A stretch of DNA of 64,000 bases from a phage. Shown here piece by piece: positions 24,229 to 62,896 of this stretch. Numbering within the stretch: the stretch's first letter is position 1; the number at the start of each line of letters is the position of its first letter. The position numbers and the translations under genes were made by a program. The DNA lies in sequence record PZ674596.1; one strand, 5' to 3'. The notes under the pieces are model-generated. The model saw nothing but the letters and a program-made list of their open reading frames with translations. It was not told the DNA's origin and searched no databases.

Positions 24229-24305
24229 ATCTGTCTGGTCTTGTTCTCTCAATAAATGTAAACTCACGCAATGAATAAGTGGTTACTTATCTTTGTGAGG
24301 TTTTT

Positions 24306-25409
24306 GTGTCACTCCTTTTGAATCGTGAGCATACGAACGGTCAGGTAACAAACGCATCGTATGCAAAAGTTATTGAGACGGTGCTTAAAAGCGGCGTGCA
24401 GGCTGATGATCGCACAGGCACTGGTACTTTAAGCACCTGTTACGTTCCCTCTTACTACATGCTTACTGGTGGGACTGTGCCGCTTATTTCTGGAAAGGCG
24501 GTAAATCTTAAGCCACTGCTTGTCGAACTTGAGTGGTATCTGAAAGGCACGGGCAACATCCAATTTCTCAAGGATAACGGCGTTAAGATTTGGGATGCAT
24601 GGGCCGATGAGAATGGCGATTTGGGGCCGGTTTACGGTAAGCAGTGGCGTCGATGGGAAGATACCCGCATCGTGAGCCATAGTGAATATCTGAGCAAGAT
24701 CGCTACTTTCCGTGAACGCGGGTACAAAGTCGAGGGATACCTGGGTATCAGTGAAGATCGCGTAGTGCTGTCCCGTGAAATCGATCAGCTACAGCGTATT
24801 GTCGATACACTGCGCACGAACCCTACCGATCGTCGCATCATGCTTAACGCATGGAACGTAGGCGAGCTTGAGGATATGAAACTGCCACCTTGCCACTTTG
24901 TCTTCTCTTTGTGGAGTCGTGAGCTGGATTTTGAAACCCGTTTAACGATGGCAACTGACATTGGTCTTCAACACAGTCGCCTCGGTTACGAGTCTATCTA
25001 CACCAAGATGCTATACGATCTGGAGATAGACGGCAGTGTTACTGAAGCTGAACTGGATGAACTTGGAATCCCCAAACGCATCCTCAACTCCTGCCTCGTA
25101 CAGCGTAGCGTAGACACTTTTGTTGGTATGCCATTCAATATTGCTGGCTATGGCATTCTCACTCATTTTCTCGCGAAGATTACGGGTCACATGGCCGGTG
25201 CATTTGTGCATTTTGGCTTTGACGTGCATTTGTACAACAACCACATGGAAGGTGTGTGTGAGCTAATGCAACGACAGGCTCCAGAGCATTCAGATCCGGT
25301 CGTTATATTCCCTAATGAATGGTCTGAGCTGGATGATTTCAAATGGGACGAGATTCTTATTCTTGGCTATGCCCCTCTACCGTGGATCAAGGTTCCAGTG
25401 GCGGTGTGA
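24306..25409 (+). CDS. thyA: thymidylate synthase (ThyA family, with insertions)
   Basis: ThyA motifs DRTGTGT, DRRIMLNAWNVGEL, PPCH, GMPFNIAGY; start uncertain: placed at in-frame GTG 24306 after GAGG, since table GTG 24279 lies inside an operator-like palindrome. Confidence 0.8.
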   Translation: MSLLLNREHTNGQVTNASYAKVIETVLKSGVQADDRTGTGTLSTCYVPSYYMLTGGTVPLISGKAVNLKPLLVELEWYLKGTGNIQFLKDNGVKIWDAWADENGDLGPVYGKQWRRWEDTRIVSHSEYLSKIATFRERGYKVEGYLGISEDRVVLSREIDQLQRIVDTLRTNPTDRRIMLNAWNVGELEDMKLPPCHFVFSLWSRELDFETRLTMATDIGLQHSRLGYESIYTKMLYDLEIDGSVTEAELDELGIPKRILNSCLVQRSVDTFVGMPFNIAGYGILTHFLAKITGHMAGAFVHFGFDVHLYNNHMEGVCELMQRQAPEHSDPVVIFPNEWSELDDFKWDEILILGYAPLPWIKVPVAV

Positions 25410-43542: not shown

Positions 43543-44643
43543 TCACACTGCGCGGAATGCGATTTCGCCAGGTATTACTTCACCTTGCCAATACATTTGG
43601 GCAGCAACGCGATCTGCGAGGTCACGATAAATAGCTGTAAATTCGCTATCTGGACGACTAATAACGGTTGGTGTTCCGTTATCCAGATCTTCACGAAGAG
43701 AGATATGAAGTGGCATTTGGCCTAACAACTGCGTGTTGTATTTCTCGGCCAGTTTCTGTGCGCCACCGGTGCCAAAAATTGGCTCGTGATGACCGCAGTT
43801 ACTGCAAATATGCACACTCATGTTTTCAACGATACCCAGTACCGGCACTTCGACTTTTTCGAACATCACAATGCCTTTCTTCGCATCGATCAGCGCGATG
43901 TCTTGCGGCGTAGTTACCACAACCGCACCAGTTACAGGAATGTTCTGCGCCAGCGTCAACTGAATATCACCAGTGCCCGGCGGCATATCGAGAACAAGAT
44001 AGTCCAGATCAGGCCACAATGTTTCCTGCAACATCTGCATTAACGCCTTGCTCGCCATCGGTCCACGCCACACCATTGCATTGTCGTCGGTGACCAGATA
44101 ACCAATAGAGTTGGTTGCCAGGCCATGAGACATGATAGGTGCCATGTGAGTACCGTCAGGTGAGGTTGGACGTTGGTTTTCCGCGCCCAGCATGGTTGGA
44201 ATTGATGGACCATAGATATCGGCATCCAAAATACCAACTTTCGCACCTTCAGCAGCCAACGCCAGTGCCAGGTTTACCGCCGTGGAGGATTTACCCACGC
44301 CGCCCTTGCCTGAGCTGACGGCGATAATGTTCTTAACGCCATTAATGCCTGGTTGGTTTTTGACGCGCTTAAGCGTGGCAATGTTGTACGACAGCTTCCA
44401 GTCAATAGCCTTTGCGCCAGTGATACGGAGCAGATCACCACTACATTGCTCTTTCAGGTCTTCAAAAGGCTTATTCCACACGAAAGGCATGATTAGTTCG
44501 ACATGCAGTGTGTCATCCATCAACGCAACATGGTGTAACGCTTTAAGCGTAGTCAGGTTGTGTTTCAGGGTTGGGTGCTGAAAATTAGCCAGCGTACCGG
44601 CTACCATTGCTCTCAGGGCATCCGGCGATTTGGACTCGCTCAT
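43543..44643 (-). CDS. mrp: Fe-S cluster carrier ATPase Mrp/ApbC (host-type)
   Basis: 366 aa; deviant Walker A SGKGGVGKSS; matches my recollection of enterobacterial Mrp. Confidence 0.9.
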   Translation of the reverse strand: MSESKSPDALRAMVAGTLANFQHPTLKHNLTTLKALHHVALMDDTLHVELIMPFVWNKPFEDLKEQCSGDLLRITGAKAIDWKLSYNIATLKRVKNQPGINGVKNIIAVSSGKGGVGKSSTAVNLALALAAEGAKVGILDADIYGPSIPTMLGAENQRPTSPDGTHMAPIMSHGLATNSIGYLVTDDNAMVWRGPMASKALMQMLQETLWPDLDYLVLDMPPGTGDIQLTLAQNIPVTGAVVVTTPQDIALIDAKKGIVMFEKVEVPVLGIVENMSVHICSNCGHHEPIFGTGGAQKLAEKYNTQLLGQMPLHISLREDLDNGTPTVISRPDSEFTAIYRDLADRVAAQMYWQGEVIPGEIAFRAV

Positions 44644-44800
44644 CCCGTCTCCTTTATTTTAATTTGCGCAATTGTCGCCTTGTAGTGTACTCCAGCTACG
44701 ACATTTAATCATTTATGAGAAATGCTGTTATCACATGGCAGACATAAGGCCATTTTGTTACTATCAAGCCCCTTTTCACTACAAAGAAGTAATGCCTACT

Positions 44801-46834
44801 ATGACCCAAGTCGCGAAGAAAATTCTGGTGACGTGCGCGCTGCCGTACGCTAACGGCTCAATCCACCTCGGCCATATGCTGGAGCACATCCAGGCTGATG
44901 TCTGGGTTCGTTACCAGCGAATGCGCGGCCACGAGGTTAATTTCATCTGTGCCGACGATGCCCACGGTACGCCGATCATGTTGAAAGCACAGCAGCTTGG
45001 TATCACACCGGAGCAGATGATTGGCGAAATGAGTCAGGAACATCAGACTGATTTCGCAGGCTTTAACATCAGCTATGACAACTATCACTCGACGCACAGC
45101 GAAGAGAACCGTCAGTTGTCCGAGCTTATCTATACTCGCCTGAAAGAGAACGGTTTTATTAAAAACCGCACCATCTCTCAGCTGTACGACCCGGAAAAAG
45201 GCATGTTCCTGCCGGACCGTTTTGTAAAAGGCACATGCCCGAAATGTAAAGCGCCGGATCAATACGGCGATAACTGTGAAGTCTGCGGCGCTACTTACAG
45301 CCCGACTGAACTGATCGAGCCGAAATCGGTAGTTTCTGGTGCTACGCCGGTAATGCGTGATTCCGAACACTTCTTCTTTGATCTGCCTTCTTTCAGCGAA
45401 ATGTTGCAGGCATGGACCCGCAGCGGTGCGTTGCAGGAGCAGGTGGCAAACAAAATGCAGGAGTGGTTTGAATCTGGCCTGCAACAGTGGGATATCTCCC
45501 GCGATGCGCCGTACTTCGGTTTTGAAATTCCGAACGCACCGGGCAAATATTTCTACGTCTGGCTGGACGCGCCGATTGGCTACATGGGTTCCTTCAAGAA
45601 TCTGTGCGACAAACGCGGCGACACTACCAGCTTCGACGAATACTGGAAGAAAGACTCCACCGCCGAGCTGTACCACTTCATCGGTAAAGATATCGTTTAC
45701 TTCCACAGCCTGTTCTGGCCTGCCATGCTGGAAGGCAGCAACTTCCGCAAGCCGACCAACCTGTTTGTTCACGGCTATGTGACGGTGAACGGCGCGAAGA
45801 TGTCCAAGTCTCGCGGCACCTTTATTAAAGCCAGCACCTGGCTGAATCATTTTGACGCCGACAGCCTGCGTTACTACTACACTGCGAAACTCTCTTCGCG
45901 CATTGATGATATCGATCTCAATCTGGAAGATTTCGTTCAGCGTGTGAATGCCGATATCGTTAACAAAGTGGTTAACCTGGCCTCCCGTAATGCAGGCTTT
46001 ATCAACAAGCGTTTTGACGGCGTGCTGGCAAGCGAACTGGCTGACCCGCAACTGTACAAAACCTTTACTGATGCCGCTGAAGTGATTGGCGAAGCATGGG
46101 AAAGCCGCGAATTTGGCAAAGCTATCCGTGAAATCATGGCACTGGCTGACCTGGCTAACCGCTATGTTGATGAACAGGCTCCGTGGGTGGTGGCGAAGCA
46201 GGAAGGACGCGATGCCGATCTGCAGGCGATTTGCTCTATGGGCATTAACCTGTTCCGCGTGCTGATGACGTACCTGAAACCGGTACTGCCGAAACTGACT
46301 GAACGTGCAGAAGCATTCCTGAATACAGAACTGACCTGGGATGGTATCCAGCAACCGCTGCTGGGCCATAAAGTGAATCCGTTCAAGGCACTGTATAACC
46401 GTATCGATATGAAACAGGTGGAAGCACTGGTGGAAGCATCCAAAGAAGAAGTGAAAGCCACAGCTGCACCGGTAACTGGCCCACTGGCTGACGACCCGAT
46501 TCAGGAAACCATCACCTTTGACGACTTCGCCAAAGTTGACCTGCGTGTGGCGCTGATTGAAAACGCGGAGTTTGTCGAAGGTTCTGACAAACTGCTTCGC
46601 CTGACGCTGGATCTCGGTGGTGAAAAGCGTAATGTCTTCTCAGGCATCCGTTCCGCTTATCCAGATCCACAGGCACTGATTGGTCGTCACACCATTATGG
46701 TGGCTAACCTGGCACCACGTAAAATGCGCTTCGGTATCTCTGAAGGCATGGTGATGGCTGCTGGCCCCGGCGGGAAAGATATCTTCCTGTTAAGCCCGGA
46801 TGCTGGTGCTAAACCTGGCCACCAGGTTAAGTAA
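44801..46834 (+). CDS. metG: methionyl-tRNA synthetase (host-type)
   Basis: 677 aa from ATG 44801 (table ORF has spurious 43-aa extension); [16 protein letters not shown], Zn knuckle CPKCK..CEVCG; near-identical to enterobacterial MetG as I recall it. Confidence 0.95.
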
Positions 46835-54622: not shown

Positions 54623-55144
54623 TCAAAACGGTAAAATTCGTTCAACCCAATCGAAGAATACAAGTGTTTTTCTGCCGTCTTCTAACTTAAGAGTGACCTG
54701 GCAAGCATCAACGCCTCTTGATATCCCTTCTATTTCACGACCGTCTGCCATGTAGACCCTTATAGATTTGCCGTTTTGGTAAGCCTGACGACATATCTTA
54801 AAAAAGTCACGACGTGATGGCTGATTGTCAACATAGTCTGGATGTATTGTTAGCCTACCTTTGAACTCGCGAGCAATGCCATCGATTACACCTGATTCAA
54901 TTGTGCTAATGCGCTCAAGTGGGAGTCTTATACGATTTTCTTTATCATATGGAAGCGGGCATAAATCTAGCTTATTGCGGGAAGGCATTGTCCCCTGAAC
55001 GTACATGCAAAACACCTGACCGTCTTCAAGCGTGACTCTTACAGGAATGTTGTTTTTCCGCCAGAACATAAGTATGTTTTCAGCATGTTCGTAGTCTCGT
55101 GGCCAGACTTCTGCTGGAATGCCGTAGGTGATGTCTTTAACCAT
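54623..55144 (-). CDS. hypothetical protein with internal tandem repeat of ~80-aa domain (weak Sm/Hfq-like signature)
   Basis: 173 aa; halves share R..N.IPVRVTLEDGQV / GKSIRVYMADGREIEG pattern; ends 3 nt before the secreted-protein gene. Confidence 0.45.
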   Translation of the reverse strand: MVKDITYGIPAEVWPRDYEHAENILMFWRKNNIPVRVTLEDGQVFCMYVQGTMPSRNKLDLCPLPYDKENRIRLPLERISTIESGVIDGIAREFKGRLTIHPDYVDNQPSRRDFFKICRQAYQNGKSIRVYMADGREIEGISRGVDACQVTLKLEDGRKTLVFFDWVERILPF

Positions 55145-55246: not shown

Positions 55247-56047
55247 ATGAAGAATGGGGTGAATAAAAAATACTCATTAGCATTGTTAATAGCGGCTTTA
55301 CTATTAACAGGTTGTGATTCTGATGAAGAGCGAGCCATAAATCTGGTCGAGAAGGATATTCGCTCTACACTGCTAGATCCTGATGCTGGTCGGTTCACGA
55401 ATATGCGAGCTATTCAGTTAGGTGAAAATAGCTATTCATATATGGTATGTGGAGAGGTGAATGGCAAAAACGTCTTGAACGCCTATACAGGTGCGACCGC
55501 ATTCAATGCACACATCTTTGATGTTCGTGAACGTAACCCGATTGTATTCGTTGCAATGGATAAAAATACCAACTCGGCAAGAGAACGATTACGTTTTGAA
55601 CGCCAAAATCTAGCATGTAAAGAAAATGGTGTGAAACTTTATCTGGAAAACGAATCTAATATCAGGAAGGAAAAAGAGAAAATAGATGATTTAAAAAAAA
55701 CTCCATTAGGTCAGGCTGTGTTTGATGCTGCAAGTGATTCGACATATGTGAGTAGAGAGTTGGGCGAATCGAGAGGTGTTAGTGAAGTGTATGCAAGAGA
55801 AAATGATAAATATGCTCTTGTTAGCGTCACCAATTATGACACTCCTGACTTTTACAAATTTAGGAAAAAAGATAACGGTGAACTAGAACCTGTTAGAGGA
55901 CTGTCTTACACCGGCTATCCATTCGCGGTTACACTGTGCCATTCTGAACAAACAGATTATGACAAATGCATAACAGAAGAAGAAATCAAGTTGCTTCGAG
56001 ACGAAAAGAATAAGCTGGATGATTTTGTCGTGCCACCAGAAGAATAA
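55247..56047 (+). CDS. lipoprotein of unknown function
   Basis: 266 aa; signal peptide with lipobox LLTGC; only plus-strand gene in the low-GC island. Confidence 0.55.
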   Translation: MKNGVNKKYSLALLIAALLLTGCDSDEERAINLVEKDIRSTLLDPDAGRFTNMRAIQLGENSYSYMVCGEVNGKNVLNAYTGATAFNAHIFDVRERNPIVFVAMDKNTNSARERLRFERQNLACKENGVKLYLENESNIRKEKEKIDDLKKTPLGQAVFDAASDSTYVSRELGESRGVSEVYARENDKYALVSVTNYDTPDFYKFRKKDNGELEPVRGLSYTGYPFAVTLCHSEQTDYDKCITEEEIKLLRDEKNKLDDFVVPPEE

Positions 56048-56106
56048 CATATACAAAATATTTAATTGCTGTTAACATTTAATCGTTCAGACATAGGGAA
56101 AGTCCT

Positions 56107-56144
56107 ATGCCCTCGACAAATCTTTCTGGTATTGTCGAGGGCAT
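56107..56144. terminator. bidirectional hairpin between convergent genes
   Basis: ATGCCCTCGACAA...TTGTCGAGGGCAT inverted repeat. Confidence 0.6.
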
Positions 56145-56169
56145 GTTTCACATTTATAGGTAGATAGCG

Positions 56170-57303
56170 TTAATTGGCGTTTTCGTTCTTCTCTTTTTTG
56201 CTAATTTCATCACATGCAAGGTTCATTATGTCTATGTTTTCTTGTTTTTGAAGGTTGCCGACAATTTTTTGGCGCAATTCATAAAATCGCTCGCGTGGTA
56301 TAGCTTCCTTGTTGCCGCTGATGTGAAGTATTGCGTGACAGCTAGGGCAGACGGCAATCAGATCTGTTTTTGGGTTCACGCTTCGTGCACCTTCGCCTTG
56401 TGAAAGTGGGATGATGTGGTGAGCGTGTAGCAGCGTTTTCGTTTCTTTACCGTCAATTTCCTTGCCGTATATTTCCGACATCGTTCTGCAACATAGTTGA
56501 CACCTGTAGTCTGCGTTTGCCAGAACGTCATTCCTTAACCCGGATACGCGGCTACGATGTTGCGACTGGATTAATCTTGTTTCGCCCTCTATATATTCCT
56601 CAACTTCTTCTTTCTGGAGGTCGTAGCTGATTTCTTCTTGAGTTACGTTGTCTTCTGCTTTGGCTGAGACTGCATGAATCTCTTTCTTATTCAACGAGAA
56701 AGGTGATTTGAGAGCATCAGCACTGTTTTGCCCTCTTGAATGTTGTGATTTTAGAGCAAGATTGTAAATCTCTTTTAATTTGACATTTTTTTTGTTTGTT
56801 CTAAAGAACTTTCTGCTCTCTACTTGTGAGATAATCCCTGATTCTATATATTGAATTAACACACGAAGAAAATGTTCTATAGATTTTTTACTTTTGAATG
56901 AAAAGGAATAGCCGACTTTCTTTCTCAACTCGTTTTCGCTAAAGAACTCTTTCAGATTTTCGTCGTCAGTCAGGTTAATGGTTGCACCTGCCCAGGTTGA
57001 AGCTTCTACAATTTCAGGAATAACCTCTTGGTCGCCAAGCTGATTGTTTATTTCATCCAGCATTTTAAAGACTGTCAATATTGGATACGGATTCGTCACC
57101 AGACCGTTAGAGGATTTCGTTCTAGGCCCATTCTTTTTTATAATGATGGGGTGCTGTTGAGAAGTTTTCTTTAATTGTAAATAATAAAGGTTTATATTAT
57201 TATTCGTTGATATACCTGCCGGTTTTATCAAGGATAATTTTTCATCACATGCAATATCATCTATTATATTTCTTAGGTCACACGTTTTTATAAATTGACG
57301 CAT
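56170..57303 (-). CDS. HNH-nuclease-domain protein with unknown N-terminal domain
   Basis: 377 aa; C-terminal CQLCC...HAHHIIPLS...CPSCH HNH signature; low GC; RBS GGAGGA lies in a CCTCCGAA/TTCGGAGG hairpin. Confidence 0.6.
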   Translation of the reverse strand: MRQFIKTCDLRNIIDDIACDEKLSLIKPAGISTNNNINLYYLQLKKTSQQHPIIIKKNGPRTKSSNGLVTNPYPILTVFKMLDEINNQLGDQEVIPEIVEASTWAGATINLTDDENLKEFFSENELRKKVGYSFSFKSKKSIEHFLRVLIQYIESGIISQVESRKFFRTNKKNVKLKEIYNLALKSQHSRGQNSADALKSPFSLNKKEIHAVSAKAEDNVTQEEISYDLQKEEVEEYIEGETRLIQSQHRSRVSGLRNDVLANADYRCQLCCRTMSEIYGKEIDGKETKTLLHAHHIIPLSQGEGARSVNPKTDLIAVCPSCHAILHISGNKEAIPRERFYELRQKIVGNLQKQENIDIMNLACDEISKKEKNENAN

Positions 57304-57443
57304 ATATCCTCCGAATTTCTTCGGAGGCGGAGCCTACAAATATCGTTCAGCCAATCAAGAAATTTTTTCAGCCGGAGGTGTACATTTCAAAAAATGTGAC
57401 GAATGTCACATGCAGGTGCTCTCATACACCTGCATGTAGACTA

Positions 57444-58010
57444 TTAATCATTCAATAATCTATATTTTCTTTTGATTAAATCTTCACCTTTTTTGGTGAA
57501 CACAAAACCAAATTGCGATTTTTTGTTTAGACGAAGGACTCTGTTATCCAACGCATCGGTTGATGGAATCAATGTTTGATCATCTATCCAATTAAGTAGC
57601 GTAAGAAAGTTCAGCAGCCTCAACGTTGTTGTGCGAAGCTCTTTCGATATATTTTCAATGCTGGCAATTCGTCTTTCTTTTTTCTCAGGTGGTACAGATA
57701 ATTGTTCTTGAGGTTTCGTGGATAGATAATCAATTTCGTTTGCTGCATCGAATGATATGTGTGGCGTAATTTTGCTAAAAAAGCCTTTCGCTGACTCACT
57801 TGATAATAAACCAGACCTATTCATATCGTTTGTTATTCTGTACAGGAGTGGACTGTGTTTCATTTCAGGATAACGTTGATAAAAGTTAAGCAATTCAAAA
57901 GCAGCATTAGCGCCAACAAGAAAATCAGAAGGATCGCTGACTTTCCAGAAAGAATGATTTTTCTTAGCGCCAGTGGTGTCAACAAATGATAATTCTTTTA
58001 ACCAACTCAT
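57444..58010 (-). CDS. hypothetical protein
   Basis: 188 aa from ATG 58010 with RBS AAGGAG; inverted repeat GATGTGCTC-N13-GAGCACATC overlaps the RBS. Confidence 0.45.
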   Translation of the reverse strand: MSWLKELSFVDTTGAKKNHSFWKVSDPSDFLVGANAAFELLNFYQRYPEMKHSPLLYRITNDMNRSGLLSSESAKGFFSKITPHISFDAANEIDYLSTKPQEQLSVPPEKKERRIASIENISKELRTTTLRLLNFLTLLNWIDDQTLIPSTDALDNRVLRLNKKSQFGFVFTKKGEDLIKRKYRLLND

Positions 58011-58075
58011 GATGTGCTCCTTTCTAACAAGTGAGCACATCATAGAATTAGTAGATAGGGGGTAAATATGAAATG

Positions 58076-58354
58076 TTACGGCAACCTGCTCAGTATTTCC
58101 TCTAAATCTTTTTTTGTCATATTGGAGTTTTCATAGATGCGCATGATTTTCTCACGCGTCTTAGCGGAAACCCCAACGGCAGATGTGACTTTGTCAAATT
58201 CAGCCATAGTCATCGTCTCCAGAATGGCATTGATAACTTCAGCCTTAGACATCTTGATTTTTTTCTCTTTGAGTTTTATTTGAAATTTTCCAAGTTTTTC
58301 ATTGGCCTTATCAGACAATGCCACTTGGCAATAAGTTGTTTTTTTTTCGCTCAT
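58076..58354 (-). CDS. small hypothetical protein
   Basis: 92 aa, Lys-rich; starts 2 nt after helicase stop. Confidence 0.4.
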   Translation of the reverse strand: MSEKKTTYCQVALSDKANEKLGKFQIKLKEKKIKMSKAEVINAILETMTMAEFDKVTSAVGVSAKTREKIMRIYENSNMTKKDLEEILSRLP

Positions 58355-58356
58355 AA

Positions 58357-59916
58357 CTAATCTCGTTTCAGAATTCCAAAATCGAATGCGCCATCAACAG
58401 GCAATACACCTTCCGCAAAGCCAGGTGTGGTGTCGATGATGTGTTTTCGCTCATAAGAGTGAGACAACAGGTATTTGTTGCTAGTGTCAATGAAATCAGT
58501 GATAAAACACACGTTTGCCTGATTCTTCTTGGCTCGTAAGCCACGACCGACACGCTGCCTCATTTCAACTTCTGCTTTCCCACCACCAGCCAGAATGACC
58601 GCACCAACGCTTGGCACATCAACACCGACATCCAGAATAGTCGAGCCTATTAAAACATCTATGTCGCCAGACGCTAAACTGTTCAGCTTTGCTTGCCTTG
58701 TCGACTGGTTCGATTCCCCATAAATGAAGTCAACTCTAAGGCCGGACTCTTTCATCATTTCCATCAGGATTTGCCCGTGGCGTTTAAGACGAACCAGAGT
58801 CATACAATTGAGAGAATGTTGCTTATAGAGCAATGCTTCGCGAACAATGGCCTCATTACGTCCCAAATTATACACGATCCCCAACTGATAAGCCTTTTGG
58901 TAGGCAGTGCTCATACCTACTCTAAAATTGAGGTATTTGTTGGCAAGTTCTGCCTTGATTCTGGCCTCGTCCGGCTTGTAGGCAACTTTATGATAAAGGA
59001 AGTATGGTTTTGCCAGAATGCCTCTATCAATCAGGTACTTTTCTGTGACTTTAATTTCAATTCGCCCGGCCACCGCCATCAGGCGCATGTTGGCTTCCGT
59101 CGAATCCTTCATGAACGGCGTGGCTGTAAGCGCCAGACGATAGTCTGCGTTCACACATAATCTGGCGATGTCATAGAAATTTGAGCCTGAAGACTCATGC
59201 GCCTCTTCCAGAATAAGAAGAGAGACACTTGAAAGGAAGCGTTTCACCAACTCCCGACGTTTGAGGTGGTAGCTTTTCTTATCTGGTGTTGCATCGCGTG
59301 GTGGTTCTTCGAGGAAACTTGCAAGAGTTTGAACTGTAGCGACGTTGATATGTCGTGATACCTGGAACTCACCCGAGCCAATGACTCCAACCTTTTGGTC
59401 CTTTAACCACGGTTCGCCATTTTCGGCGCGGTAGTCGATGGATCTCTGGAAGTTTTCGGCCATTTGAAACATCAGAACAGAGCGGGTTGTTAAAAATAAT
59501 GTCATTCGACCGATACGTGCAGCTGCTTTGCAGGCAACGTTAGATTTCCCACCACCAGTAGCGATCTGGGCAATCATCATTCCCTCGCGAACTAGTGTTT
59601 CCACAGCCTGATCCTGATATGCATAATCAGGATTGTATGGGAATGGGTTAACCGCCGGATTTGGCTTTCCAAGCGCCGGGGCTTTGTCTTTGCGGATATG
59701 AACACATTTGATGCCCGCCTTGTTCAAGTTCGCCGCTACAGGCTTGGCAAAGCCAGCAGGGAACGAGTTTTTACTCCAGTTGAACATCGTGCTTGTGCCC
59801 TTCCAGTCGCCAGTCTCGACTTCGTAGCTCAACATTTGCTGCACCAGTTGCTTTACCTTGTCATCTGCGCCAGAAATAAGCGCATTTACTGCGTTAGATA
59901 CAATCCGAACAGTCAT
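58357..59916 (-). CDS. SF2 helicase (UvsW-like, tentative)
   Basis: 519 aa; motif I ATGGGKS, motif II ILEEAHE, motif III TATP, motif VI QRVGRGLR; N-terminal region loosely resembles UvsW N-domain. Confidence 0.65.
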   Translation of the reverse strand: MTVRIVSNAVNALISGADDKVKQLVQQMLSYEVETGDWKGTSTMFNWSKNSFPAGFAKPVAANLNKAGIKCVHIRKDKAPALGKPNPAVNPFPYNPDYAYQDQAVETLVREGMMIAQIATGGGKSNVACKAAARIGRMTLFLTTRSVLMFQMAENFQRSIDYRAENGEPWLKDQKVGVIGSGEFQVSRHINVATVQTLASFLEEPPRDATPDKKSYHLKRRELVKRFLSSVSLLILEEAHESSGSNFYDIARLCVNADYRLALTATPFMKDSTEANMRLMAVAGRIEIKVTEKYLIDRGILAKPYFLYHKVAYKPDEARIKAELANKYLNFRVGMSTAYQKAYQLGIVYNLGRNEAIVREALLYKQHSLNCMTLVRLKRHGQILMEMMKESGLRVDFIYGESNQSTRQAKLNSLASGDIDVLIGSTILDVGVDVPSVGAVILAGGGKAEVEMRQRVGRGLRAKKNQANVCFITDFIDTSNKYLLSHSYERKHIIDTTPGFAEGVLPVDGAFDFGILKRD

Positions 59917-59998
59917 AAACCTCTTTCCTTAGTGCCTTTTGTATGTTATTTGGCTATTATAATAAGTAAGTGATTACTTAGTGGATTGTAGCAATAAA

Positions 59999-60679
59999 AT
60001 GGATGTAAAAATCACGATTTTGCAGGTTGATGTTGCCAACCTTCGCCCGAATACCTGGAACACCAATTCGGTTGGTGCGCAGAATTTTGAAAAACTGAAA
60101 GGTTCTATCGAAAAATTGGGCTTTTTTAAGCCAATTTTGGCTCGTGAACTTGAAGATGGATTTTTTGAAATCCTCGGCGGCGAACATCGCTGGCGTGCTG
60201 CTATTGAGCAAGGAATTTCAACGGTTCCGGTGCTTTCTGTGGGCAAAATTAGCGATGTCGTAGCTAAACAGATGTCACTGGTGGACAACGAGCGATACGG
60301 TGAAGACGACCAAATCGCATTGCAACGCTTCATTGAAGAAATTCAGTCAGAACTTGACTATCAACTGTCTGAAATCGCCCCGTATGACGACGAAATCTCG
60401 ATGGTTTTAGCAAAAGAGGCGGCAATCGACCTTGAAGCACTGGAGGCGTTGTCTCGTGGTAGTGATGAGCCTGTCGATACCGACAAACGAGAGAAAACCG
60501 AACGTGTGGGTGCGGAACATCAGACCATGCGCTTCAAAGTAACTTTCGATGCGTCAGATCGTGTTGCAGAAACCATAAAAAACATCATCAAAGAGCAGGC
60601 TATTAACACCGGTAATGAAATGGAGAACGCTGGTGAGGCTCTGGTGTGGCTGGTCGACTACTACAAGGAGCGTATGTAA
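59999..60679 (+). CDS. ParB N-terminal-domain (ParB/Srx-like) protein 1
   Basis: GGEHRWRAA ParB box-II-like motif; start uncertain (ATG 59999 or GTG 59981). Confidence 0.5.
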   Translation: MDVKITILQVDVANLRPNTWNTNSVGAQNFEKLKGSIEKLGFFKPILARELEDGFFEILGGEHRWRAAIEQGISTVPVLSVGKISDVVAKQMSLVDNERYGEDDQIALQRFIEEIQSELDYQLSEIAPYDDEISMVLAKEAAIDLEALEALSRGSDEPVDTDKREKTERVGAEHQTMRFKVTFDASDRVAETIKNIIKEQAINTGNEMENAGEALVWLVDYYKERM

Positions 60680-61347
60680 TGACCAAAAAGTTTGAAATCG
60701 TATATCGCGACCCGGCAGATCTTATTCCCTATGAGATGAATGCCAAAAAGCATGATGAACAGCAGATCCGAGATCTGGCCGCAGCCATTAAAAAGCGCGG
60801 ATTTGACCAGCCAATTACGGTCGATAAGAACGACGTAATTATTACTGGCCACGGCCGCCGTGAGGCTGCAATTTTTGCTGGACTTGAGCGCGTACCGGTT
60901 ATTGTTCGCGATGATCTCAGTGATGACGAGGTTCGTGCGAAGCGCCTTGAAGATAACCGACTTGCCAGCATTGATTACGATGCAATTAAGCTACAGAAAG
61001 AGCTTGAGTCGCTTGTTCTGGACGATATCGAGGTTTTCGGCTTTGAAGAGCGTGAGTTGAATGTTCTCGTTGGCAGTATGACAGAAGAAATGGACACCGA
61101 TTCGCTAGTTATCGATCTTGGCGAAGAAACTAAACGACAGAAGGATGAACACACCGAGATCAGTCGTGAAGTTGCAGCGGAAGAAGTACGTGTTGTCGAC
61201 GTATTGGGCTTTAAAACGCTCCCTGCTGGCTCTGCCATTGTTGTTGGTGATTTGCTTGCCCACATGGAAGAAATGACGGGAGAAAGCGGGGTAGACGCAT
61301 TTGTGGCATATGCGGAGAAGATCTCTTCCGGGGAGATGGCTGCATGA
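60679..61347 (+). CDS. ParB N-terminal-domain (ParB/Srx-like) protein 2
   Basis: 222 aa from ATG overlapping upstream stop; ITGHGRREAA motif; acidic C-terminal half. Confidence 0.5.
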   Translation: MTKKFEIVYRDPADLIPYEMNAKKHDEQQIRDLAAAIKKRGFDQPITVDKNDVIITGHGRREAAIFAGLERVPVIVRDDLSDDEVRAKRLEDNRLASIDYDAIKLQKELESLVLDDIEVFGFEERELNVLVGSMTEEMDTDSLVIDLGEETKRQKDEHTEISREVAAEEVRVVDVLGFKTLPAGSAIVVGDLLAHMEEMTGESGVDAFVAYAEKISSGEMAA

Positions 61348-62009
61348 GCAAATACATCATCAACGTATCGTTTCAGACACGCGTAAATAAAACCACGCGC
61401 ACGTTGGAAATCGCTGAGTCGTTCGGGCTTGGCCTGGACGAAAAAGAGTGGACGCTTTACGACAATCTGGAGCTGGAAGTGAAGCAGGGCGATGTGGTGT
61501 ACATCACCGGCCAATCCGGTTCTGGCAAATCCGTTGTGCTGCGCGAGTTGCAACGCCAGATGAAGGATGAAGGGCTTTCTGTAGCCTCCATCGATGATTT
61601 TACCTTCGATAATGAGGTTAACGTCATCGATCAGTTGGGCAAAACGACCAGTGATGCGCTTGGGTTGTTATCTATGGCTGGTCTGAACGATGCATATCTG
61701 TTTGTTCGCAAGCCTTCTGAAATGTCAGACGGCCAGAAATATCGTCTCAAGATTGCCAAACTGATTGAGTCAGGCGCTAAAGTGTGGGCTGCTGACGAGT
61801 TCGGCGCTGTTCTCGACCGTGTAACCGCTCAGGTTGTGGCGTCTAACCTCCAGCGTGCCGCTCGAAAGGTTGGTGCGACGGTAATGGTGGCGACGACTCA
61901 CGAAGACCTGAAGAACGCGCTGCGCCCGGATATGCAGATCACCAAGCACTACAAAGAACGCGTGAAGGTGGAATATCACAATGGTAGTCACGATGAGGTC
62001 CATTCATGA
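61344..62009 (+). CDS. soluble ABC-type ATPase
   Basis: 221 aa; Walker A GQSGSGKS, signature-like SDGQKYRL, Walker B VWAADEF, H-loop TTHED; no membrane domain. Confidence 0.55.
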   Translation: MSKYIINVSFQTRVNKTTRTLEIAESFGLGLDEKEWTLYDNLELEVKQGDVVYITGQSGSGKSVVLRELQRQMKDEGLSVASIDDFTFDNEVNVIDQLGKTTSDALGLLSMAGLNDAYLFVRKPSEMSDGQKYRLKIAKLIESGAKVWAADEFGAVLDRVTAQVVASNLQRAARKVGATVMVATTHEDLKNALRPDMQITKHYKERVKVEYHNGSHDEVHS

Positions 62010-62896
62010 CGGACATCATCATTAAACGCTACCGCCCTGAAGAGTTTCCGCGTCATCTGGACTTTCTGGAGCGAATGACTGTTACAAAGGGAACTGTAGA
62101 GGACTGGCACGCTCTTAAGTCGCTTCACTACAAAACAGACGGCAAACCTTTCGCGCCAACTTACTATCGCTGCGAACTTGATGACCGTCTGGTGGGCGTC
62201 GTGGTTATGGCTTACCCGAAACTACTGTTGGCACCTCGCCACCGCATGTTTCCTAAGTTGAAACCAACCACTAATACCACCGTGGCTAACCAGTACTGGG
62301 GTCGGTACGTGAATAACAACTTTGCGGTGATCAGTCGCTCAGTTGTGGATACTCAGTATCGTGGCGTAGGCGTCTCTTATCGAATGATTAACCTGGTTAG
62401 CAGGATGCATGACCGGCCAATCATTGAGATCCAGTCCTCGATGAGCAAATACAATCCCTTCGCCATGAAAGCAGGGTTTAAGTTCATCCGCCCTGAGCGA
62501 CCGAAGAGCTATGAAAGTGCACTGCGTGTATTCCAGCGCCATTTCCGTTCTGACCCGGGTAATAACGAGGCGATCGTCAAAGAGTTGTTCGCAATGAGCG
62601 AGTCTCGTCGTCGCCGTGCACTGCGTGATCTGGTGGCGGACTACCACAAGAACAGTTCCCTGGCAAAAGCTGGGCGGAATCGTGGCACGACGATTCAGGA
62701 CATTGCCGACAGTCTGGTGGACGAGGCCAGCATTGTGAAGCTGCTCAAGGACATTCACAACCTGAGCTTTACGTCTCCGTTGTATGGTGTGTACCGAAAC
62801 CCTGACTTTGGCCGTCGACTGCCTGACACGCTGCCACTGCTGGCATTCGACAAACAACCTTTGGATAAACCGTTAGAAATTGCTTTACCGGCATAA
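62006..62896 (+). CDS. hypothetical protein (possible GNAT-like fold)
   Basis: 296 aa; RSVVDTQYRGVGVSYRMINLV resembles acetyl-CoA-binding motif; overlaps ATPase stop. Confidence 0.4.
   Translation: MTDIIIKRYRPEEFPRHLDFLERMTVTKGTVEDWHALKSLHYKTDGKPFAPTYYRCELDDRLVGVVVMAYPKLLLAPRHRMFPKLKPTTNTTVANQYWGRYVNNNFAVISRSVVDTQYRGVGVSYRMINLVSRMHDRPIIEIQSSMSKYNPFAMKAGFKFIRPERPKSYESALRVFQRHFRSDPGNNEAIVKELFAMSESRRRRALRDLVADYHKNSSLAKAGRNRGTTIQDIADSLVDEASIVKLLKDIHNLSFTSPLYGVYRNPDFGRRLPDTLPLLAFDKQPLDKPLEIALPA

Follow-up and report, generated by a model that had tools for sequence, protein, structure and literature searches.

Among described nucleases, the protein studied here is most readily compared with EcoKMcrA, the Type IV restriction endonuclease of prophage e14 (PDB 6ghc), which is likewise prophage-encoded and joins, in one polypeptide, an N-terminal recognition domain to a C-terminal Cys4 zinc-finger HNH domain. 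McrA is not known to need an immunity gene. The other systems relevant to the comparison are free-standing HNH homing endonucleases of phages, of the T4 mobE, I-TevIII and I-HmuI type. In the T4 genes I-TevI-III, segB and mobE, a hairpin over the Shine-Dalgarno (SD) sequence silences read-through transcripts, and the gene's own promoter allows translation (PMC2988022). We analysed a 64,000-nt stretch of the phage record PZ674596.1 (the window; all coordinates are window positions) around an open reading frame (ORF) at 56170-57303 on the minus strand, whose 377-amino-acid (aa) product is listed in RefSeq as 'HNH endonuclease' (WP_094307971.1). Comparison with related records indicates that this gene is a fusion of an N-terminal domain (N-domain) to an HNH module, and that the fusion is a rare, deletion-prone variant in a slot whose usual occupant in sister elements is a stand-alone N-domain gene. 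The interpretation that we tentatively favour, while giving it somewhat less than an even chance, is that the fusion is a self-contained accessory nuclease, combining a variable targeting N-domain with a conserved HNH cutter, that may serve in McrA-like defence against, or exclusion of, foreign DNA.

As judged from its sequence, the window belongs to an SSU5/pHCM2/Cyrano-like phage-plasmid, a plasmid-like E. coli virus. Over the 5 kb around the locus, identity to non-mobilizable plasmids of about 110 kb from E. coli and E. albertii (233 PLSDB records) is 96-98%, and the same stretch matches the Escherichia phages Cyrano (the plasmid of strain LF82) and PhiR41_1.

The 377-aa protein can be divided into three parts, all encoded on the minus strand. 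Codons 1-160 (56824-57303) specify a fast-evolving alpha/beta N-domain of the phrog_31250/29155/25050 superfamily with a predicted YgaC-like fold. Codons 161-220 (56644-56823) specify a basic linker of low confidence, with an isoelectric point (pI) of 10, which forms the 3' part of a swappable cassette. Codons 221-377 (56173-56643) specify the conserved HNH module, composed of an acidic helix, a CxxC...CxxC zinc-finger beta-beta-alpha-Me HNH domain and a helical tail. The initial annotation, made from the letters of the sequence, had read a C-terminal HNH signature in this ORF, and this was borne out: the Pfam family HNH (PF01844) matches aa 286-327 (nt 56323-56448) at E 3e-6, its 27.7 bits exceeding the gathering score of 21.4, and among PDB sequences the region is best matched by the McrA HNH domain of E. 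coli (6ghc; E 5.8e-4). Residues C268/C271(C272), H295-H296, N310, C319/C322, H323 and H327 are invariant in five fusion homologs and align with McrA. In these homologs the C-terminal 157 residues are highly conserved, and the N-terminal ~200 residues have diverged to 19-36% identity. The persistence of the catalytic and zinc-binding residues in five diverged fusions, which fall into two N-domain clades, indicates that the HNH module is under selection. PADLOC gave weak hits to Type IV mREase and HNH models, the mREase_IV model PDLC03656 matching with an E-value of 3e-5 over the HNH region only. Similarity to IscB (NF040563) was rejected, as it reached 23.6 bits against an equivalog cut-off of 175. 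A Foldseek search of the full-length model against the PDB returned nothing below E 0.3, with MotA and McrB-N appearing at E > 1 only. Two partly longer tblastn matches, HNH proteins of 243 aa from Klebsiella and 313 aa from Rhizobium, share the HNH alone and carry no assigned N-domain.

The part of the protein in front of the HNH domain is of a different kind. The roughly 270 aa first described as unassigned are a real stretch, better put at about 205-260 aa, and aa 1-~205 are without a family assignment in Pfam, NCBIfam and PADLOC. A search of 5.8 billion sequences with the full-length protein found only five homolog clusters, one of them from Klebsiella oxytoca, all in the same slot of SSU5-like elements. 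When the N-terminal profile was run exhaustively, as a hidden Markov model (HMM), against 1.84 billion representatives, only five true relatives were recovered, again all in this slot: the fusion-cluster representatives P0002 and P0004, stand-alone proteins of 181 and 177 aa, and a 43-aa remnant. An EF-hand repeat protein among the matches of this search was discarded as spurious. By hhalign, the N-domain matched a 191-aa stand-alone protein in the same slot of phage PhiR41_1 with a probability of 94.7%, and an HMM scan of all fetched loci added further stand-alone members, namely a 162-aa form (E. coli, K. pneumoniae) and a 187-aa form. Three PHROGs that hit one another, 31250, 29155 and 25050, all without a known function, are matched by the N-domain as well as by its stand-alone relatives; the match of the window protein to phrog_31250 is weak (E 2.3e-4). 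The members of these PHROGs at loci L003, L013, L015, L019, L034 and L039 stand alone without a nuclease, whereas the window protein adds the HNH. Comparison of the N-domain profile with PDB sequences found nothing. Pairwise identity within the family ranges from 13 to 73% (13-55% between clades), and the ORFs are still intact across genera. In Salmonella enterica (L037:4676-5165, and L038) the N-domain gene is split into fragments of 117 and 61 aa, an apparent frameshifted pseudogene. Overall, the sequences describe a very narrow family that diverges fast and has been seen in no other slot. The N-domain had been called novel, and it is indeed uncharacterised, but that description overlooked the stand-alone N-domain as the usual occupant of the slot and the HNH fusion as a rare variant.

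Comparison of the window gene with the P0002-type allele (L009) revealed how the two parts are combined. Up to position 57330 the two alleles share 98% of their DNA sequence, and the same holds from 56643 (codon 221) on; between these points no similarity is detectable. Over the HNH module (codons 221-377) identity is 97.5%. Matching flanks around dissimilar DNA indicate that the leader, the N-domain and the linker were exchanged as one cassette. One metagenomic element (L013:4892-5546, and L014) carries two cassettes in tandem. The first is a P0002-type N-domain-HNH gene; the second consists of a copy of the terminator and promoter block (76% identical), followed by the stand-alone N-domain gene P0006, which belongs to a different clade.

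The fusion was scored in sequence collections by the internal 1020 bp of the gene. The 72,556 plasmid records gave one hit and the 5,426 complete E. coli genomes gave two; among the 233 related plasmid records a single one has it, so that it occurs sporadically between conserved genes. No second PLSDB record carries the HNH module of the window gene. Most E. coli relatives have instead an 'empty' allele, which corresponds to an in-frame deletion of 1035 bp between perfect 15-bp direct repeats (TTTCATCACATGCAA). The first copy of the repeat (56205-56219), one end point of the deletion, encodes ACDE near the C-terminus, and the second (57240-57254) encodes ACDE at aa 18-21. Of the gene, the deletion alleles keep 21 codons at the start and ~11 at the end; their exact junction was found in 29 plasmids, and phage Cyrano retains the first 21 codons of the fusion gene. 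Stand-alone N-domain genes detected by tblastn fall into three clades, with 23, 76 and about 24 plasmid records. Two clades of a neighbour-joining tree contain the fusions, and the N-domain-only proteins P0006 and P0007 nest beside the fusions P0004 and P0005. This arrangement indicates that the HNH was gained or lost more than once.

The same distribution could be read in another way, which we regard as rather doubtful: the N-domain would have a role outside genetic conflict, as a regulator or as a replication or lysogeny accessory together with the 188-aa protein encoded next to it, and the HNH would be an incidental, mildly deleterious accretion that is being purged. N-domain-only forms outnumber fusions by about 120 to 1 in PLSDB, and the fusion has been deleted recurrently or clonally. 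The N-domain and 188-aa genes are moreover both restricted to the lineage, and both are missing from the contigs L029-L032 of Y. pestis (NCTC5923), Kluyvera and Buttiauxella. However, a housekeeping regulator would not typically show identities of 13-55% between clades or be swapped on backbones that are nearly identical, L015 has an N-domain-only gene without a 188-aa gene, and conservation of the HNH is strong, its catalytic and zinc ligands being unchanged in the five fusions of two N-domain clades. In a further explanation, a long shot in our view, the N-domain would be a polymorphic specificity module in conflicts between sibling phage-plasmids, the fusions acting as weapons against a target that the N-domain defines and the stand-alone forms as decoys, immunity proteins or a reservoir from which cassettes are switched in behind the conserved promoter. 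Such an arrangement would be analogous to the orphan modules of Rhs/CDI or HsdS systems, but inside a temperate phage-plasmid. The second cassette of L013, with its own copy of the promoter block, could fit among such stand-alone decoy, immunity or switching reservoirs.

Analysis of the DNA between the genes showed that the slot has regulatory elements of its own. The leader of the window allele (57304-57330, minus strand) forms an 8-bp hairpin with a GAAA loop (plus-strand 57308-57327), and the 3' arm contains its SD sequence, GGAGG, with 4 nt left to the AUG. The leader mRNA reads CCUCCGAA-GAAA-UUCGGAGG-AUAU-AUG. The initial annotation had already placed the ribosome-binding site in a hairpin, which we can confirm: the structure folds at -13.7 kcal/mol (z -2.8), and only 2 of 200 shuffled sequences fold as well. 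It is specific to the window allele and its deletion derivative; the leaders of the other alleles are unrelated, and their SD sequences look weak by eye. Directly upstream, at 57331-57379 (minus strand), a conserved block of about 50 bp precedes every cassette type (ACCTCCGGCTGAAAAAA-N4-TTGATT-N16-TAGGCT; conserved parts CGGCTGAAAAAA..TCTTGATTGGCTGA..TTTGTAGGCT), and the variable DNA begins directly after TAGGCT. The block stands ahead of the second, N-domain-only cassette of L013 as a duplicate. We infer that it is a promoter, TTGATT-N16-TAGGCT. It is unique in the window and so is no general phage promoter motif, and no LexA box was seen in it by eye. Between the end of the -10-like TAGGCT (57331-57336) and the 5' arm of the hairpin (57320-57327) lie 3 nt, so that a transcript started at the usual distance would lack part of this arm.

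The slot is bounded by further hairpins on both sides. Two adjacent structures follow the stop codon of the 188-aa gene (57388-57437, minus strand), a covarying stem of 11-15 bp and then a 7-bp stem with T6. The first has an 11-bp stem (57408-57418/57427-57437), and in seven diverged relatives 15 pairs are kept, seven of them through compensatory double changes. The second (7-bp stem, 57394-57411, with T6) partly overlaps it and alone scores as terminator-like; the pair together reach a z of -4.75. Two hairpin terminators had been proposed here: the two hairpins stand, but only the second resembles a terminator. On the other side, a 13-bp inverted repeat (ATGCCCTCGACAA/TTGTCGAGGGCAT; 56107-56144) folds at -23.2 kcal/mol (z -5.8) and is likely a bidirectional terminator common to the HNH gene and the convergent lipoprotein gene. 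An Rfam scan of 55900-58400 found nothing. With its own promoter-like block and its bracketing hairpins and terminators, the slot is laid out as a self-contained, independently transcribed accessory gene, in agreement with the earlier view that the HNH gene and the 188-aa gene are separate expression units.

It had further been argued that such tight control points to a toxic restriction or abortive-infection effector. This step does not discriminate between explanations, because SD-sequestering hairpins and flanking terminators are equally a hallmark of phage homing-endonuclease genes (PMC2988022), and the regulatory features thus cannot separate defence from homing. In an alternative that we consider unlikely, the gene would be a selfish, free-standing endonuclease of the homing type: the N-domain would bind a specific site in sibling phage-plasmids lacking the fusion, the HNH would cut there when both elements co-infect or co-reside in a cell, and repair would copy the cassette in. 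The N-domain-only forms and the deletion remnant could then be stages in a cycle of invasion, degeneration and loss. The gene resembles the T4 mobE, I-TevIII and I-HmuI type in its sporadic distribution among near-identical backbones, and its SD hairpin, upstream terminators and promoter abutting the hairpin match the regulation of I-TevI-III, segB and mobE (PMC2988022), which weighs against a defence role. Its position between conserved genes with sharp recombination boundaries, and the abundance of degenerate alleles, would also be in keeping with homing. Unlike those enzymes, however, the window protein contains none of the NUMOD, IENR1, AP2 or helix-turn-helix (HTH) DNA-binding modules in Pfam, PHROG and NCBIfam scans, and its HNH is C-terminal and of the McrA/Cys4 type. 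Full-length homology to a homing-endonuclease family, which would have spoken against the initial annotation, was not found with Pfam, PHROG, NCBIfam, homolog and exhaustive profile searches. The relatives also offer no naive empty target site, as those without the HNH have either the deletion remnant or a diverged but intact N-domain homolog. Finally, the N-domain-only proteins are intact at 37-55% identity across genera, suggesting selection for a function of their own.

The gene upstream of the slot, at 57444-58010 on the minus strand, encodes the 188-aa protein (phrog_13473, function unknown), which is restricted to SSU5-like phage-plasmids. Its start is at 58010, in agreement with RefSeq, and not at the ATG at 58043 that opens a 199-aa ORF. 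The 9-bp inverted repeat reported over its ribosome-binding site does lie over the SD sequence and AUG, but measures 11 bp (58009-58019/58033-58043, minus strand; -24.5 kcal/mol, z -7.9). Across eight diverged loci 12 of its pairs are kept, one by a compensatory change, and the loops vary in sequence and length. Conservation and compensation across diverged relatives indicate that this hairpin and the one after the 188-aa stop codon are conserved structural elements and not chance. A profile search with the 188-aa family gave 35 clusters, all hypothetical or unnamed, most of them on contigs of ~105-116 kb from Escherichia, Klebsiella, Salmonella, Citrobacter, Cronobacter and Enterobacter. The protein has no Pfam match (even at E 10), no meaningful PADLOC hit and no PDB assignment; its family profile touched the helical part of PARP1 Zn3/PADR1 over aa 16-87, a non-significant match (E 0.23) that is probably due to chance.

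The initial annotation had treated the 188-aa gene as a specific neighbour of the nuclease, and we considered whether both form a toxin-immunity or controller pair, in which the 188-aa protein, like an antitoxin or a C-protein-like controller, would counteract the HNH nuclease or hold down its expression. A 188/178-aa gene is directly upstream of the HNH in every sampled HNH locus, and it is kept where the HNH has been lost, as expected of an orphan immunity gene. Hairpins cover the SD sequences of both genes, and the C-terminus of the 188-aa protein looks winged-helix-like by eye, which no tool supports. Nevertheless, the two genes are 140 nt apart, separated by the covarying hairpin, the terminator and the conserved promoter-like block, with no layout for co-transcription or overlap. 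Strict co-occurrence is also lacking, since the 188-aa family comprises 35 clusters against five for the HNH and is present in hundreds of elements without an HNH. Copies at least 96% identical adjoin four unrelated slot occupants, including unrelated N-domains and N-domain-only genes, so there is no co-variation, and the protein itself is without a match in Pfam, PADLOC or the PDB. We therefore find a dedicated pair improbable; sequence comparison indicates that the 188-aa gene is a lineage-wide backbone gene, and its near-identity beside unrelated N-domains would speak for a nuclease with no cognate partner.

On the minus strand the genes are ordered DEAD/ResIII helicase (58357-59916), 92-aa gene, 188-aa gene and 377-aa HNH gene. 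Past the HNH gene follow the convergent lipoprotein gene (55247-56047, plus strand) and an FljA-like Flag1_repress gene (54623-55144, minus strand). The locus is best explained as a variable accessory slot between a backbone operon (helicase, 92-aa and 188-aa genes) and a block of lysogenic-conversion-type genes, consisting of variable lipoproteins and the FljA-like regulator. An extremely improbable alternative is a terminase-associated packaging HNH similar to HK97 gp74. A terminase large-subunit gene lies about 6.7 kb away in the closest record, but it is not adjacent, and the window protein is much larger than packaging HNH proteins. The gene is also missing from nearly all sister elements, and its absence from the sister phages Cyrano and PhiR41_1 led us to reject this candidate.

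Taking these comparisons together, we favour a defence or exclusion nuclease because the HNH is C-terminal and of the McrA type, modules typical of homing enzymes and a naive empty site are lacking, and the neighbours are of the lysogenic-conversion type. In such a nuclease the N-domain would supply target recognition, the target being a foreign protein or some feature of the DNA, and cleavage of DNA would fall to the HNH module, so that a single protein might exclude competing phages, plasmids or sibling phage-plasmids. It would need no immunity gene, as for e14 McrA, and no dedicated one was identified at the locus. The SD-sequestering hairpin would keep translation low, whereas transcripts from the slot promoter, lacking part of the 5' arm, would be translated; the hairpin may thus mainly silence read-through transcripts from the 188-aa operon. 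Specificity would change through swaps of the leader and N-domain cassette, and the nuclease is often lost, by deletion between the 15-bp repeats or by replacement with an N-domain-only cassette.

Several observations weigh against a defence nuclease of this kind, most of them concerning the N-domain. Compared with McrA-like Type IV enzymes, the N-domain is not of a known type that reads modified bases (NEco, SRA/PUA and similar). Structure prediction, recommended in the initial annotation, gave a model of the N-domain alone (predicted local distance difference test score, pLDDT, 75; predicted template modelling score, pTM, 0.78), with the topology alpha-beta(3-4)-alpha-beta(2)-alpha. By fold it matches only YgaC/DUF2002 (PDB 2g7j), whose function is unknown, so that the match explains no mechanism. 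At the sequence level there is no relation, as hhalign of the N-domain with E. coli YgaC gave a probability of 0.2% and Pfam gave no hit, which places the domain outside DUF2002. A Foldseek search of the model against the viral structures of BFVD returned nothing significant. No DNA-binding or modified-base-binding fold was recognisable in the N-domain, and with a pI of 7.7 aa 1-160 are not strongly basic. As stand-alone N-domain proteins are the norm, the core function of the family needs no nuclease and may be other than targeting. In addition, PADLOC assigns the 377-aa protein to no defined defence system, the AlphaFold model is of low confidence over the HNH region, and TTGATT-N16-TAGGCT is a weak predicted promoter that a consensus scan missed.

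The genes next to the slot vary as well. The FljA-like 'repressor of phase-1 flagellin' gene (54623-55144, minus strand; PF03614, E 3e-82) borders the slot in the window as well as in the majority of fetched relatives, and its alleles fall to 65-80% identity even on otherwise near-identical backbones. The position beside the slot is taken by interchangeable signal-peptide or lipoprotein genes of 266, 196, 139 and 117 aa (window 55247-56047, plus strand; L004:7130-7720; L013:5563-5982; L003:4159-4512; L015:4404-4823), some of which have an 'LLDPD/LLAPDA' motif in common. This interchange indicates that the whole stretch from the 92-aa gene to the FljA-like gene is a mosaic accessory region. Diverging from the helicase operon, 59981-62896 (plus strand) holds two ParB_N-domain genes in a row, together with genes for an ABC-type ATPase and for a 296-aa protein of unknown function, a cluster kept in nearly all fetched loci that reach that far; the PhiR41_1 record as deposited calls one of the ParB_N proteins 'DNA modification methylase'.

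Other parts of the window hold genes of metabolic type. One pair lies at 43543-46834: a full-length homolog of methionyl-tRNA synthetase (44672-46834, a 720-aa ORF from an upstream TTG) and, divergent and adjoining, an ApbC/NUBPL-type Fe-S carrier ATPase gene (43543-44643, minus strand). Both look host-derived and auxiliary. A thymidylate-synthase homolog of 376 aa (24279-25409, plus strand) matches PF00303 in two stretches, suggesting an insertion; its neighbours in the closest record are a pyrophosphohydrolase, a HAD hydrolase and DfrA51.

The significance of the locus is limited by the rarity of the nuclease, by its existing RefSeq annotation as 'HNH endonuclease' and by an architecture of sensor and HNH that is already familiar. 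The N-domain family, its usual stand-alone state, the cassette-swapping slot with the conserved promoter-like block and the repeat-mediated deletion appear to be new, in the sense that the searchable literature yielded no relevant paper on SSU5, on HNH in phage-plasmids or on the function of YgaC/DUF2002. If our interpretation is correct, the N-domain would represent a new recognition domain for single-chain nucleases that join a sensor to an HNH, and PHROGs 31250, 29155 and 25050 would gain a testable hypothesis. The SSU5/pHCM2-like elements, clinically common phage-plasmids of Enterobacteriaceae, would then have a previously undescribed hypervariable slot with a conserved promoter, and the fusion, N-domain-only and deletion alleles on near-identical backbones form a natural experimental set for studying what the N-domain recognises.

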